From assembly GCA_041178085.1 (NCBI GenBank), contig JBEGVZ010000115.1:1-12013 (forward strand): a stretch of DNA of 12,013 nucleotides. The letters run 5' to 3'. Below are positions 2,920-7,826 of the stretch, one piece after another. This DNA is from Pseudomonadota bacterium (GTDB lineage Bacteria > Bdellovibrionota_B > Oligoflexia > Oligoflexales > RGVZ01). The translations under genes were made by a program, and so were the position numbers. Every line of letters starts with the position of its first letter. The first letter of the stretch is position 1. The notes below the pieces were generated by a model. It saw only the letters and a list, made by a program, of their open reading frames with translations, was not told the origin of the DNA and searched no databases.

Positions 2920-4284
2920 GTGGTACTCAAACTCATCCAAAAACTGACCAGGTCAAACCCGGAGGCAGACGCCACCCAACCGGCACAAGCCGTGACGGGT
3001 AATTTTGACCAACTCGGGCTCATCGAGCCAATCCTCCGAGCCGTAAAGGCCGAAGGCTACGAATCTCCGACTCCGATCCAGCATCAATCCATCCCGCCCA
3101 TCCTTGACGGCCGTGACCTCCTTGGTTGCGCCCAAACGGGAACGGGCAAGACAGCCGCGTTTGCACTGCCAATCCTGCAGCGGCTTTCCGGACAACCCGC
3201 CAGAAACCACAGGATCCAGGCTCTGGTGCTTGCACCGACCAGGGAACTCGCCCTGCAGATCGGGGAAAGCTTCAAAGCCTATGGCAAGCACTTGCCACTC
3301 AGGACAACCGTCGTATTCGGTGGGGTCGGCATCGAACCACAGATCAGCAACATCAAACGCGGTGTGGACGTGCTGGTTGCAACTCCCGGCCGGTTGATGG
3401 ACTTGATGGAACGTGGTGTCGTCACTTTCCAACACCTGTCTGTCCTCGTTCTTGACGAAGCCGACAGGATGCTCGACATGGGCTTCATCAACGACATACG
3501 CCGCATCTTGAAAGTCCTGCCAGTGCGCCGGCAGAACCTGCTTTTTTCAGCCACCATTCCAAAGGAAGTCCAGGGCCTGATTGATGACATCCTGAAGAAC
3601 CCGGTCAGGGTACAGGTCACGCCGGTCTCTTCAACAAGCGAGCAAGTAGAGCAAAGGGCTTACCTGGTCGGACGCGCAGACAAGAGAAAACTTCTGCTCC
3701 ACATTCTCGATACAGAAAATGTGACGCGCGCCCTGGTCTTCACCCGGACGAAGCACAACGCCAACAAACTGGAACAATTCCTGATGGAATCCGGGATCGA
3801 GGCCGCAGCAATCCACGGAAACAAATCGCAGAGTGCGCGCCAGCGGGCACTTGAAGGGTTCCGGAGCGGCAAGGTACGCATTCTTGTTGCCAGTGACATT
3901 GCAGCCCGTGGCATCGACATCGATGGAATCTCCCACGTGATCAACTTTGAGATGCCGAACGAACCAGAGACCTACGTTCACCGAATCGGACGCACCGGCA
4001 GGGCAGAAGCACGCGGAGTTGCGCTTTCATTCTGCGACCTCGAGGAACAGACTTATCTGGCCACCATTGAGCGAATGACGCGCAAAGACATTCCCCTCGT
4101 GAAAGACCATCCGTTCACCTCCGGCGCGAACGCGCCCGTGCCGCCAAGGCAGCAGCGTGGCGGCGGTGGACGTCCCGGACGCAGACCGACAGGCGGTGGA
4201 CCATCGGCGAATCGAGGCCCTCGCTCAAGCAGGCGTGGTGGTGGTTTCAAGCCAAACAGGCAGCGGAGCGCACCGCGTGACTGA
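2920..4284 (+). CDS. rhlE: DEAD-box RNA helicase, RhlE-like
   Basis: Q motif [49 protein letters not shown], and an Arg/Gly-rich tail. GTG start has AGGA upstream. Confidence 0.93.
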
Positions 4285-5686
4285 AGTTTCTACCACCGGA
4301 GCGTCGTTCAATGACCTCAAGATCCCGGCAAAACTGAAGCAAGTGATTGCCGAACTTGGTTACGAGAAAATGACGGCTATCCAAGAGCAGGCCATTCCGG
4401 TCCTGCTCAGTGGTCGCGACATCATTGCAAAGTCAAAGACTGGCAGCGGCAAGACCGTGGCCTTCAGCGTTCCTCTTCTGTCAAAAGTTGAACCCGCGAC
4501 GCGGACCGTACAAGCGCTGGTCCTTTGCCCGACGCGGGAACTTTGTGCGCAGGTTGCACGGGAGACCCGGCGACTTGCGCGGAATTATCCGGGATTTCAT
4601 GTACTCATCATTTCCGGCGGGCAATTCATTGCACCGCAGATCAGCGCCCTCGAAAAAGGCGCCCATGTCGCCGTCGGAACACCAGGACGGGTCCTCGACC
4701 TGATCCAGCGCAAAAAACTTGTCCTGGCGAAGACGAAGCTGATCGTTCTGGATGAGGCGGACCGGATGCTCGACATGGGTTTCCAGGAAGACATGGAAGA
4801 GATCCTTTCAGCATTGCCGCGTGGTTGCCAGACTGCACTTTTCTCTGCAACCTATCCCGATACAATCGGTGAGATGAGCGCGCGTTATCAAAGAAATCCC
4901 GTAAAAGTCACCATCGAGGACGGCGGGAATGATGCGCCGTCCATCGAACAACGATTCCATCCCGCAGATTACGAAAAAAAAGCAGACGCCCTGGCTGCTG
5001 TGATCAAACACTATGCTCCATCATCGGCGATCGTCTTCACCAACCTGAAGGCCGTGGCCAGCGAAGTCGCTTCTTCGCTGAAGCAGGCCGGGGTCAGTGC
5101 GGCTGCCTTGCACGGTGACCTGGAACAGTTTGAACGGGACCAGGTGATGGCGCGCTTCAGGAATCGCAGCACGCGAATTCTGGTGGCAACGGATGTCGCT
5201 GCACGTGGCATCGATGTGGACCAGGTGGAGATGGTCGTCAATTACGACTGCCCGTCAAAGCCGGATGTCTATGTCCACCGCATCGGCCGCACGGGTCGGG
5301 CTGGAAAAACCGGGCTTGCCGTGACGCTGGTGACCGCGAAAGAACAGCACAAGCTGGCATATATCGGGGAATACACTTCCACCCAGCCATCATTGACGAA
5401 GTTGCCCTCCACTGCGGAAAAATCGGCGAAACCTTCATCCGGTGCAACGGAAATGGAAACGATCTCCATCTCTGCCGGCAGGAAGGATAAACTCCGCCCA
5501 GGAGATATCCTCGGTGCGTTGACTGGTGAAGCAGGCGGACTCTCAGGATCAGACGTCGGAAAGATTGAAATCCAGGACCGCATTTCCTACGTGGCAGTGC
5601 GCAAGGAAGTTGCCAGCCACGCGCTAAAAAGCCTTGAGTCCGGCAAGATCAAGGGACGCACGTTCCGCGTGACCCTGTTGAAATAA
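4277..5686 (+). CDS. dbpA: DEAD-box RNA helicase DbpA (23S rRNA-dependent)
   Basis: [39 protein letters not shown], and the C-terminal DbpA RNA-binding domain [20 protein letters not shown]...GKIKGR. The likely start is GTG 4277 (GGAG at 4265-68), overlapping the rhlE stop by 8 nt (GTGACTGA). Confidence 0.95.
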
Positions 5687-5729
5687 TCTGCGCCACACCT
5701 CGCTTGTTTCATCATCACAACATCAGAAA

Positions 5730-5745
5730 TGGCACGCCGCCTGCA
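5730..5745 (+). promoter_or_regulatory. Sigma-54 (-24/-12) promoter with predicted +1 at 5756, the first base of the group II-type RNA
   Basis: TGGCACGCCGCCTGCA compared with TGGCACG-N4-TTGCW has one mismatch. GG is at 5731-32 and GC at 5743-44; placing C5744 at -12 puts +1 at G5756. Confidence 0.72.
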
Positions 5746-5755
5746 TTACCCATTT

Positions 5756-6605
5756 GTGTGTTTGGAACGCAGCGATGCTGGCCAAACACTCTAGCGGGTG
5801 AGAGTCCCGCCGGTGGAGTCGTCCAGATGCCACTGTAGCCGTGGCCGCTGCCTGTGCGGGTGACTGTACAGGCAGAAGCCGGCTGAAATAACCCCCGTGA
5901 GTTCGTATGGGGGAGGGCGAACTGACAGGTTGTAGCGTGAGCGAACCTTTAAGCCCGACGCAGACCCTGCAGATAACGGATTGCAGGATGCGGGAACGTG
6001 CCGAGCCTGACTCGAAGGGAAGAAACTCCCCGAGGGTGCCAAACCAGGCGAAGGCCATTGCGGAGAACGAAGAACTGGACACGAGCAGTTCTCCGGTGTT
6101 CCACGGGTGGACAGGATGACATGTCAGGAAAGAGTGTTGGTGAAAGCACGGAAGTACTTGCAACGCCTTGGCGTTCTCCAACGCCCGGGCAGGCAAGCCA
6201 GGAAAAGCTCTCGTCGATTGAGGCTCCGGCTTTGGTTGGCGGCGGCGAAACCCGGTGAGTTCCTGCAAGTATGGCAGATGAGGTCGCGAAGCAATACGTG
6301 GCGAGACACTACAACTCGTTGCGTGCGAGGACCTCTGGGGTAGGCGGAGTGGGCGTCTTCACTGGTGCCCGAAACCCGTCGTGTGGCGGTCCGGAGTTCT
6401 AGATCCCGGACTAATGGCAGAGGCAAACTTTGGTCGATACCGCGTATGCTGGAGAATGCTTGAGCGGCGTTGACCACAAGAAAGGCCCTGCTGTGACAGC
6501 CAGCCCTGCAGCCGTACCGGGGAAAACCCAACGTACGGAATCGTCAAGAGGGTGGCGGAAACCTGAATGCCCCGAGAGGGGTCGCCAGGGGACCACCACC
6601 CGAAC
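5756..6605 (+). ncRNA. ORF-less group II intron-type ribozyme RNA (IIB-like), domains I-VI, ~850 nt
   Basis: 5' GTGTG (GUGYG). DI: GCGGG-TGAGAGT-CCCGC 5794-5810; 12-bp stem with GTGA tetraloop 5848-5875 followed by AAGC; long-range pair CCAAACACTCT 5782-92 / AGAGTGTTGG 6131-40. DII: TACTTGCA 6155-62 / TGCAAGTA 6264-71. DIII: GAGGTC 6280-85 / GACCTC 6330-35 with an inner stem. DIV is short (~6337-6507) and has no RT ORF. DV has the AGC triad at 6510-12. DVI has a GAGA tetraloop and a probable 3' end at ...CCCGAAC 6605. Confidence 0.88.
6508..6542 (+). other. Group II catalytic domain V hairpin
   Basis: GCAGCCGTACCGGGGAAAACCCAACGTACGGAATC: AGC triad, CCGTAC 6512-17 / GTACGG 6533-38 stem, AC bulge 6531-32, short GGG/CCC upper stem with a GAAA-type loop. 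Confidence 0.9.
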
Positions 6606-6622
6606 TTGGCGTTTGAAGACTT

Positions 6623-7750
6623 TTAGTTGATTCCAAGGACACGCGCTGTCCACGCAGCACCATAGATCTTTTTGAGGGACTCGCGCATCGGTGCATGGGC
6701 TTGATCGTTGCGCATCAAGTCAAGGATCTTTCTTGCACGCTGATTGGCAGCGCTGTTGAAAAATCCCTTTTCCACACCTTTCGTGATTGACCACTCATGC
6801 GCTATCTCTGCCAGCATGGCAAATACCGCAACTCCCTGCTTGTTAGAGAGGTAGGCTGGCTCCTGTTGAGCCAGGGCATGCATCATCGCGGCATTGTAGT
6901 AGAGAAACTCCACCCCGCCAGCACCCATGCCCTCTGAGCTTCCTCGTTCGATTCCAAATATCTCTTCCGTCAGGTATGCCCGCCATTCATCGACAATGTT
7001 CTCACCCAACACCTGCGTCGGCCGCGATGCGATGTAGGTTCCGTAATACATCCCCGACTTGAAGGGAATGAACTCTGCGACGTCCCGCGTCAGTATCCGC
7101 GGCTCCGGGAAGTGGGCACCCTTGCCGTCCTGGAAGTAAACGAACTTCGAACCTGGCTTCGTATTCTCATGGAGCATGAAGTGCTGGGTCTCATGGACGT
7201 CCGTTGCAGGATCACCCGAACCCAAATAAGGTGACCGGGTGTATTGCATGACCTCGCAATAAAACCGTGAATAACGCCTGGCGTCACAAGCTCTTCCCGT
7301 CGACGGGACATCCACCATCTCGATCTCTTTTTGCCATGCGAACATGGTCGTGCTGTTTGAACTCGCTGCGACAAGGCGAATGGTACGTGACAAAGGCTGG
7401 CTGGAAAGGGACGAGGAGCTACTTGCAACCAGTTTCATGGTAAACCCGGCAGCGGCTGACACCTCTTCAGAAAGCTGGAAAATGCTCCGTTCGCCGTTCG
7501 CGGAAACCAGATTGAGCTGGGTGCCAGTGGCAGCCTCACAGACTCCATCGCCAGAGCAAAACCACATCTTGTCGTGAGACTTCGGGACTGAAGCCTGTAG
7601 AAGAATCCTGCCACCAGAAGAACCCATCACGTGGACGAAAATCTGATCCGCATTCGAGTTCTTGAACTGCGAGGAATCATGCAGTCCGGACCCGCAAGCA
7701 CCCAGGCCAAGAGCCAGAATGAAAACGTGAACTGGCAACAATTTCCGCAT
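6623..7750 (-). CDS. Lipoprotein with a putative gluzincin-type zinc metallopeptidase domain (HExxH)
   Basis: Likely start ATG 7750: MRKLLPVHVFILALGLGA-C (lipobox). Small N-terminal domain with a Cys pair, Ser-rich linkers, then VHETQH and a downstream DEWRAY helix that could supply a third Zn ligand. Confidence 0.75.
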   Translation of the reverse strand: MRKLLPVHVFILALGLGACGSGLHDSSQFKNSNADQIFVHVMGSSGGRILLQASVPKSHDKMWFCSGDGVCEAATGTQLNLVSANGERSIFQLSEEVSAAAGFTMKLVASSSSSLSSQPLSRTIRLVAASSNSTTMFAWQKEIEMVDVPSTGRACDARRYSRFYCEVMQYTRSPYLGSGDPATDVHETQHFMLHENTKPGSKFVYFQDGKGAHFPEPRILTRDVAEFIPFKSGMYYGTYIASRPTQVLGENIVDEWRAYLTEEIFGIERGSSEGMGAGGVEFLYYNAAMMHALAQQEPAYLSNKQGVAVFAMLAEIAHEWSITKGVEKGFFNSAANQRARKILDLMRNDQAHAPMRESLKKIYGAAWTARVLGIN

Positions 7751-7810
7751 TTTGACCTGCCCCCGTTTAAGAGAAGACACCGAATAGACGGACTTATTGG
7801 GGGTCCAACA

Positions 7811-7826
7811 AGCAAATCGAGTGCCA
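7811..7826 (-). promoter_or_regulatory. Sigma-54 (-24/-12) promoter for the lipoprotein gene
   Basis: The minus strand reads TGGCACTCGATTTGCT, a near-consensus match with exact spacing. Predicted TSS ~7800, about 50 nt before ATG 7750. Confidence 0.75.

Follow-up and report, generated by a model that had tools for sequence, protein, structure and literature searches.

The window analysed here, a stretch of 12,013 nt, contains a group II-derived RNA lying between a dbpA-type DEAD-box helicase gene and a convergent open reading frame (ORF). The features of the locus, with coordinates, strand and basis of assignment, are as follows.

4157 to 5686, plus strand: upstream dbpA-type DEAD-box helicase gene, from the ORF list and a protein domain (start codon provisional).
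5730 to 5745, plus strand: sigma-54 (-24/-12) promoter motif, from the motif spacing and the same motif in family copies.
5756 to 5765, plus strand: predicted 10-nt 5' mini-exon (leader), with IBS1 at 5760-5765 forming 6 Watson-Crick pairs with EBS1; +1 placed by the promoter spacing.
5766 to 5767, plus strand: predicted scissile region, with no GU; 5765/5766 by the EBS1 register, 5766/5767 by alignment to mobile relatives.
5769 to 6150, plus strand: domain 1 (D1), with closing helix 5773-5779/6145-6150, from an Rfam group-II-D1D4-4 match and folding.
6039 to 6044, plus strand: EBS1 (CCAAAC), in the loop region of a hairpin closed by 6005-6008/6046-6049; top partner of the leader, the same loop pairing with the 5' exon in relatives.
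6109, plus strand: putative EBS3 (G), its register set by eye where mobile relatives covary with the first base of the 3' exon.
6154 to 6272, plus strand: domain 2 (D2), from folding.
6273 to 6275, plus strand: putative J2/3 linker GGC, so named from its place between D2 and D3.
6276 to 6338, plus strand: domain 3 (D3), approximate limits, with stem 6280-6285/6330-6335, from folding.
6344 to 6505, plus strand: domain 4 (D4) region, folded and without a maturase ORF, from the ORF list, a protein profile search and folding.
6509 to 6541, plus strand: domain 5 (D5), with AGC triad at 6510-6512, GAAA loop and AAC bulge, shaped as the D5 of mobile relatives.
6550 to 6601, plus strand: domain 6 (D6), with the branch-position A6598 paired to U6553, from folding.
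6602 to 6609, plus strand: GAAC (old 3' splice site) and a conserved TTGG tail; 6605-6608 can pair with 6545-6548, burying the site.
6623 to 7780, minus strand: convergent ORF without a Pfam match, in the same ~2.3-kb insertion as the RNA gene.

The tertiary element names EBS, IBS and J2/3 are assigned here in what we take to be their usual sense. As an earlier sequence-only reading of this DNA had noted, only 17 nt separate the RNA from the convergent gene, which ends at 6623, 17 nt past 6605.

The promoter motif, TGGCACGCCGCCTGCA at 5730-5745, carries GG and GC ten bases apart, and counting from C5744 as -12 places the predicted +1 on G5756; both this position and the exact -24/-12 spacing claimed by the sequence-only reading were confirmed by position count. 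Motifs were judged against what we take to be the sigma-54 and sigma-70 consensus sequences. The strict motif is expected 0.04 times in shuffled windows (both strands) and was observed twice, the second match lying on the minus strand at 7811-7826. Because the looser core TGGCAC-N6-TGC is barely commoner in the genome (50 occurrences) than the same core at wrong spacings (32-48), a single match is weak evidence. The window's genome (G000) encodes rpoN and has six strong sigma-54 activator matches. Within the window's genus, conservation begins exactly at the first base of the promoter, with none upstream of the motif, so that no conserved activator site appears to travel with it. We found no terminator after dbpA or after D6 in the window, and read-through is therefore possible there.

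Occurrence in related bacteria

In the first search (41 relatives), the RNA was present in 12 of 21 other genomes of the window's taxonomic family and in 0 of 19 outside it. Patterns taken from inside the RNA, used to avoid circularity with respect to the promoter, matched 106 loci in GTDB genomes and 15 in metagenomes, and DNA searches, in which two candidates per genome were scored, covered a further 401 and 201 genomes. The resulting distribution is patchy, with carriers making up 13 of 22 genomes in the taxonomic family (the window's included), 22 of 401 and 8 of 201. Named records with the RNA are mostly Oligoflexales, Pseudobdellovibrionaceae, Bdellovibrionales, Oligoflexia or Bacteriovoracaceae. 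The majority of carriers are metagenome bins, and no cultured one was identified among them. Three loci (L189, L063 and L088) were dropped as chance matches in other sequence, and two patterns run against viral contigs gave no match.

An RNA-only profile yielded 62 distinct copies of the RNA family, 44 of which served as representatives at below 85% identity (mean identity 54%). In trees, the sigma-54 copies fall into four clades on long branches, and a branch with 100/100 support separates the RNA family from mobile introns; the order of the deep sigma-54 branches is not resolved in these trees and monophyly is not shown, and the copies are to be read as kin, not as independent. The RNA is single-copy in G000, and several carriers have two copies per genome. 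No RVT_1 match was found in G000 (96% complete); such a match is present in 2 of the 13 carrier genomes of the taxonomic family and absent from G008 (8 contigs, 97% complete).

Two predicted promoter types in a common register

The sigma-54 motif stands upstream of 50 of the 62 family copies, 48 times in its strict form and twice in a looser one (GG-N10-GC), and 12 copies are without it. Among these 50, the -12 C lies 23-26 nt from an anchor G in the RNA, the -24 and -12 bases are conserved at 98-100% with the spacer free to vary, and the predicted +1 base is unconstrained (T 17, G 14, A 11, C 8). None of the 63 mobile relatives, acidobacterial and other, recovered by the same promoter-independent search carries the motif, nor does any of the 19 other RF02003 matches inspected in the class, which are ordinary introns. 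In the first relative search, ten matches, the window's own included, extend back exactly to 5730, and the motif is in register at 14 of 14 5' ends among the matches listed. Furthermore, promoter spacers in the window's genus are near-identical between copies at different sites, suggesting that the promoter moves with the unit. The sequence-only reading had proposed to look for the motif in front of homologues at unrelated loci; its recurrence in 50 of 62 copies supports that reading's central suggestion, namely that this is a domesticated group II-derived RNA transcribed independently from a promoter of its own.

Nine of the 12 copies lacking the motif form one clade (support 100/99; six genomes). 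All nine have a T(G/A)A-N6-TCA box, seven at -58 and five at -80 from the anchor, the chance of such a box being ~0.01 each, by shuffle, for one 22-nt window. One source gives TTGAT-N4-ATCAA as the FNR box and -41.5 as the centre of class II sites (PMC7349173). For a start 10 nt before the anchor, a box at -58 has its centre at -41.5 and leaves an 8-nt leader; since it thus puts +1 ten bases before the anchor, the start register appears common to this clade and the sigma-54 copies. No sigma-70 -10 or -35 element of the clade is strong by itself (shuffle fractions 0.012-0.44). Two clade copies (L241 and L242) have a Crp-family gene immediately upstream, and Crp-family genes occur in 5 of 5 clade genomes tested, with rpoN still present in four of these five. 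Judging from these sequences, the clade apparently uses an FNR/CRP-activated sigma-70 promoter, and the family appears to have switched promoter type while the start stayed in register. Three copies (L231, L232 and L245) have neither promoter type. Because the sigma-54 motif is conserved at a fixed distance and the FNR/CRP-type boxes keep the same register, we regard the RNA as almost certainly a stand-alone, promoter-driven, group II-derived gene and not a promoter-targeting intron. The true start site, placed by promoter spacing, and the activity of the promoter are inferred.

A short leader that pairs with EBS1

In the mobile relatives, the intron starts two bases before a conserved GCAG (GT in 54, TT in 8 and CT in 1 of 63), and the flanks rejoin into recognisable targets, for example domain 5 or the 5' end of another intron. 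A hairpin loop in D1 pairs with the exon directly before this boundary in 41 of 53 rows of mobile relatives, which identifies it as EBS1. In the window, the intron-start position maps to A5767 and EBS1 to 6039-6044. When the 11 bases before the boundary were scanned against all columns for Watson-Crick pairing, the EBS1 loop ranked first, with at least 4 such pairs to the leader in 44 of 44 representatives; a G-U-permissive scan did not single out the EBS1 site. Leader and EBS1 form at least 5 bp in 59 of the 62 copies, and in 52 of the 62 this pairing stops within 0-1 nt of the boundary. Pairs between a copy's own leader and loop average 5.91, against 4.16 +/- 0.17 after permutation, with 0 of 2000 permutations reaching so high a value. 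The complementary words differ between lineages in a compensatory manner (e.g. L001, L013, L107, L227, L228, L230 and L232). Measured from the sigma-54 +1, the exon is 8-12 nt long in 48 of 50 copies, and its 10 nt in the window would leave little room for IBS2. The core of the leader is nearly invariant (G in 60 of 60, last U in 60 of 60), whereas the mobile relatives vary EBS1 freely. At the position of the 5' GU the window has AC, and GT is found in 0 of 62 family copies as opposed to 54 of 63 relatives.

These results change the 5' end assumed by the sequence-only reading, in which GTGTG at 5756 opened the intron fold, +1 was the first intron base and there was no 5' exon. GTGTG at 5756 is ruled out as the intron start by the relatives' boundary, by the EBS1 register and by the lack of GT in all 62 copies. 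Because the boundary maps to A5767 and the leader pairs with EBS1, GTGTG is instead part of the mini-exon, and +1 would open a 10-nt exon-like leader (5756-5765). The RNA is not exon-less, since this leader carries IBS1, and its transcript would start 8-12 nt before the splice-site position. With a leader in that place, the exon junction that the sequence-only reading had named, CCCATTT joined to TTGGCG, is the wrong one.

Two further candidates for these elements were set aside. A loop at ~6079, considered as EBS1, is absent from the top partners in both leader-partner scans, and the CCAAACAC segment at 5782, a candidate alpha loop or partner for the leader, turned out to be a nested helix of D1 and pairs more weakly with the leader.

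Core elements kept and splicing elements lost

The window matches the Rfam model group-II-D1D4-4 at 5792-5940 (84 bits, E 1e-17), with no other Rfam match up to E = 1 and none to the D5/D6 model Intron_gpII. The 850 nt are predicted to fold more stably than each of 20 shuffled versions (z -6.5), in the six-domain group II order D1-D6. The consensus fold of 25 full-length copies predicts 130 pairs, 82 of them with change on both sides, and includes two spurious helices involving promoter DNA. The sequence-only reading had described a complete group II fold; a D1-D6 fold does follow the promoter, but the branch position is paired and the Rfam D5/D6 model does not match. Its description of the RNA as ORF-less stands, as D4, at ~160 nt, holds no reverse transcriptase.

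The D5 triad is AGC in 37 and CGC in 3 of 52 copies, with its central G in 49 of 52; the 12 non-canonical triads are AGG (5), CGG (3), AAC (3) and GGC (1), three of them without the central G. The linker between D2 and D3 is GGC in 50 of 55 copies. Triad, bulge, D5 loop and linker thus stay conserved among representatives that average 54% identity. The branch position is paired in 48 of 51 copies and is an A in only 37, as opposed to a bulged A in 10 of the 11 distinct D6 sequences of relatives. At the 3' end, the window's genus alone retains AC, and there the TTGG that comes next can pair below D6; copies outside the genus do not conserve this end, and 25 of 45 of them have a U-rich run after D6. 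TTGG on both sides of the RNA was considered as a target-site duplication and rejected, the 3' TTGG being explained by the pairing below D6 and the window having ATGG on the left. Overall, the family keeps the catalytic core and has lost the 5' GU, the branch-point A, the maturase gene and, for the most part, the 3' splice site.

Neighbourhood and movement of the unit

The segment 5690-7950, comprising the RNA gene and the convergent ORF, is absent between dbpA and an ABC-F gene in two genomes (G002 and G004), and a third (G006) has other sequence after dbpA. The unit does not usually neighbour the helicase gene; five genomes of the window's genus carry it downstream of hpf, and it occupies at least three different sites in that genus. 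In the stretches compared, no promoter motif was found at the empty hpf and TPM sites of G000 or at the empty dbpA sites of G002, G004 and G006. The empty alleles do not correspond to ligated exons, as the empty sites are without both promoter and leader. As empty sites are without the motif and spacers are near-identical across sites, the unit appears to move or duplicate as DNA together with its promoter.

Copies change locus, a behaviour rarer in host genes than in mobile elements, and we counted this, together with the patchy distribution, against the explanation favoured below.

Among flanking proteins (46 picked by hand, namely 41 of 63 listed and five second neighbours, plus 44 of 53, with no background control), Pfam matches comprised CBS (12), Hsp20 (5), baeRF (5), sigma-54 activator (5), phosphoribosyltransferase (4), Usp (2), HPF (2), Crp (2) and OsmC (1). 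Regulons for low oxygen and dormancy typically include such genes. Downstream of D6, a gene on the same strand (Hsp20, CBS or SDR) begins after 2-55 nt in several copies; the window's RNA and many other copies are followed by a convergent gene.

RNA-library contigs

We found 23 sequencing runs holding part of 5500-6900, 17 of them recorded as RNA, and compared four: three RNA runs, each from a different study, and one whose kind is not on record. The RNA contigs cover only bins 5710-6618, in pieces of 628, 192 and 144 nt at 0-1 differences; beyond these bins the three RNA runs gave only short helicase-motif matches from other organisms. One contig of the fourth run extends over 4748-7700 with 73 differences, which rules out an assembly error as the source of the arrangement in the window. 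The runs, selected because they contain the RNA stretch, come largely from related strains or copies, and their contigs give no ends, strand or level; that they lie on the RNA gene and not on dbpA or the convergent ORF is thus a weak hint of an independent transcript. No joint linking 5765/5766 to 6605/6606 is listed among the RNA contigs, itself a weak observation.

Discussion

On balance, these data are best explained by an ORF-less group II ribozyme gene with a regulated promoter, whose RNA removes its own leader by hydrolysis and then persists as a linear ribozyme. In this model, the gene's own regulated promoter, sigma-54 in most copies, would transcribe an RNA of ~850 nt that starts 8-12 nt before the old 5' splice site and so carries a minimal 5' exon, little more than IBS1. 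EBS1 would dock this leader in the active site, where the RNA, with water as the nucleophile, would most likely cut off the triphosphorylated leader and leave a linear 5'-monophosphate ribozyme whose guide is free. It would no longer ligate exons, form lariats or retrohome. Hydrolysis, limited to the first step, is suggested because the branch nucleophile is lost while the core and the docked leader are kept. If the gene is indeed stand-alone, we consider self-cleavage quite likely. The RNA is probably made under low-oxygen or dormancy stress; we infer this induction, like the hydrolytic cleavage, from the comparative data.

Several alternatives share the promoter-driven gene and differ in what its RNA does. 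Action on targets outside the RNA is predicted with low confidence. In its fullest form, which we put forward only tentatively, the RNA would be a host-regulated multiple-turnover endonuclease ribozyme, produced when oxygen is low or in dormancy and self-activated by removal of its 10-nt leader, whose freed EBS1 guides cleavage or end-joining of cellular or phage RNA, or of single-stranded DNA, bearing the conserved UGUUYG-like word. A fixed outside target would yield a near-invariant leader core, and the invariance observed, where mobile relatives vary EBS1, fits this reading. The 23S rRNA was considered as a trans target and set aside: both leader words occur in two 23S genes, at 6 sites in L261 and 5 in L262 (with flanks), about the chance level for 5-6-mers, with no formal null.

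It seems unlikely that the RNA is promoter-driven but catalytically silent, a scaffold or protein-binding particle in which the leader stays docked permanently on EBS1. The absence of the 5' GU from 62 of 62 copies, the altered triads (12 of 52, including three AAC) and the lack of a reverse transcriptase (RT) partner in 11 of 13 carriers would all fit such a particle, and protein contact might account for the near-invariant leader core. Against it, triad, bulge, tetraloop and linker have been conserved at a mean identity of 54%, and in 52 of 62 copies only 0-1 nt lie between the end of IBS1 and the ancestral splice position, a geometry that only catalysis should need.

A hydrolytic cis-splicing intron in the manner of C.te.I1 would join the 10-nt exon either to a 3' exon or to the mRNA of a stress gene lying downstream, whose expression it would thereby control. 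The same-strand Hsp20, CBS or SDR genes 2-55 nt after D6 would suit this arrangement, the window's genus keeps the 3' GAAC and a putative EBS3, and hydrolytic two-step splicing is documented (PMC4024640). We nevertheless find the proposal decidedly unlikely: the AC end is not conserved outside the genus, often giving way to a U-run, the tail within the genus folds back to pair with the base of D6, a convergent gene comes next in the window and in many copies, and, more weakly, the RNA contigs contain no 5765/5766-6605/6606 joint.

The sequence-only reading had offered as its own alternative a mobile ORF-less lineage that inserts at sigma-54 starts, with RT supplied in trans. Its ancestors are indeed mobile ORF-less introns, several carriers have two copies per genome and the window's genus at least three sites, but such a lineage is very improbable here. 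The empty hpf, TPM and dbpA sites have no promoter motif in the stretches compared; the promoter travels with the unit, with near-identical spacers at different loci; the branch A is gone, 11 of 13 carriers have no RT, and in one clade a different type of promoter stands in this register. An ordinary decaying intron read through from dbpA behind a chance promoter-like match is hardly credible, despite the missing terminator between dbpA and the RNA and a looser motif that is not enriched genome-wide, given a motif at fixed register in 50 of 62 copies at many loci, compensatory change throughout, and RNA contigs on the RNA gene and none on dbpA, itself not the usual neighbour.

The closest known systems are the mobile ORF-less introns of Acidobacteriota (RF02003), which share with the family the D1-D5 architecture, an unusual D5, the EBS1 hairpin and the lack of an ORF, the relatives being ~750 nt long. 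Unlike the family, from which the 100/100 branch divides them, they start with GT/TT-GCA, have a bulged A and an AC end, vary EBS1 with their targets and carry no promoter motif. Two reports describe a lost branch A and hydrolytic splicing for C.te.I1 of Clostridium tetani and for IIB1 introns in fungal rRNA whose 5' splice sites are shifted (PMC4024640, PMC4424553). As portrayed there, they resemble the family in being ORF-less, in keeping IBS1 without the branch A, in having no cognate IEP in the genome and in their hydrolytic first step, which in the family is predicted only; they interrupt a host transcript, keep GUGYG and ligate real exons. The family, unlike C.te.I1, is intergenic, with a ~10-nt 5' exon from its own promoter, the GU gone and the 3' splice site mostly lost.

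HYERs are ORF-less class IIC hydrolytic ribozymes of 0.4-0.6 kb, for which the source consulted describes neither an own promoter nor a mini-exon (PMC11754743). On that description they and the family are both ORF-less, EBS-guided group II RNAs with hydrolysis as the likely reaction. Class IIC EBS1 pairing comprises 4 bp (PMC4024640), and the family, with its 850 nt, large D1 matching RF02003 and 6-7 bp EBS1, is therefore not of the HYER class IIC. Circularly permuted (CP) group II RNAs, as outlined in PMC8637638, begin with D5-D6, keep the branch A and form circles of 15-86 nt; like the family they are conserved large bacterial group II derivatives with very short exon sequence, whereas the family has the order D1-D6 and has lost the branch A. 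The same text describes the lariat-capping (LC) ribozyme, of group I descent, which branches and caps mRNA (PMC8637638); on that account it is a parallel in how it works, an intron reduced to one-step 5'-end processing (in the family, predicted), with no homology. The family is thus set apart from mobile self-splicing introns by the GU, branch A, IEP and empty allele, from CP ribozymes by domain order and from HYERs by class, the last by published description only. Our literature search, which did not extend to supplement lists of candidate RNAs or most subscription journals, found no description of this RNA family.

Taken together, the RNA is a real, conserved, promoter-driven, group II-derived gene of Bdellovibrio-like bacteria, probably with a new job, likely performed under stress. 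It shows how a selfish intron can become a host gene, one that persists without RT across several deep Bdellovibrionota-type lineages. Should it act as a compact, hydrolytic, IIB-like ribozyme that needs no protein and is guided by 6-7 nt, it would also be of interest as a tool. If the RNA did prove to be a trans endonuclease, it would be a bacterial trans-acting group II descendant and a living parallel to the step that gave rise to the spliceosomal RNAs. On its conserved features, the family is a candidate new class of large bacterial catalytic RNA that may be under stress control.

Insertion of the RNA gene together with a convergent ORF

The RNA gene and the adjoining convergent ORF make up a single insertion of about 2.3 kb, which carries two sigma-54 promoter motifs that face each other. 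The features of the window concerned are as follows.

2920-5686, + strand: two tandem DEAD-box helicase genes, directly upstream of the RNA gene
6623-7780, - strand: convergent ORF of 385 aa, adjoining the RNA gene
7811-7826, - strand: second sigma-54 motif, upstream of the convergent ORF

The second motif is nearer to the consensus than that of the RNA gene itself. A Pfam scan of the 385-aa product gave no match, and in a further genome (G019) a homologue of this ORF lies at another place, where no RNA gene adjoins it. DEAD-box helicases of the kind encoded upstream can act as chaperones in the folding of group II RNAs; comparison of the loci across genomes showed that dbpA is not a conserved neighbour of the RNA gene.

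Between the hpf stop codon and the hpf terminator, members of the window's genus share a non-coding stretch, about 130 nt long, that is conserved (G000:C26, about 51680-51810, in the window's own genome; also in loci L011, L009 and L007). An Rfam scan of this stretch in L011, with E-values up to 0.1, gave no match.

ORF-less group II introns of Acidobacteriota

The Acidobacteriota harbour a lineage of ORF-less, multi-copy group II introns of about 750 nt, seen at loci L045, L047, L068, L098 and L101 and at some 60 further loci from the GTDB pattern search. Their 5' end reads GTGCA, and their insertion sites lie in other group II introns, either in domain 5 or at the 5' end, and in palindromes. 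The two introns tested in full against Rfam Intron_gpII, L045 and L068, gave no match.

Surroundings and divergent members of the family

In the window's genus, clustered, short palindromic REP-like repeats directly adjoin some family copies (flanks of L007, L027, L179 and L192). RNA-processing or ribosome-rescue genes were each seen beside one copy:

L249, 1625-2041: archease gene
L250, 2252-3004: beta-CASP nuclease gene
L224, 966-1358: RF-1 domain protein gene

Two copies, from records titled Streptomyces griseus (L120) and Polynucleobacter (L111), group among the Bdellovibrionota-type copies, and the titles or bins of these records are probably wrong. At L049, two RNA copies lie in tandem at a spacing of 1470 nt, and both carry a sigma-54 motif of their own. 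An Hsp20 gene and a CBS gene come after them, and a Usp gene lies in divergent orientation. Three further copies (L231, L232 and L245), in which neither a sigma-54 nor an FNR/CRP-type promoter was found, carry an AAC catalytic triad in domain 5 and a divergent domain 6 region, and retain the pairing between the predicted leader and EBS1 (8, 8 and 5 bp, respectively).
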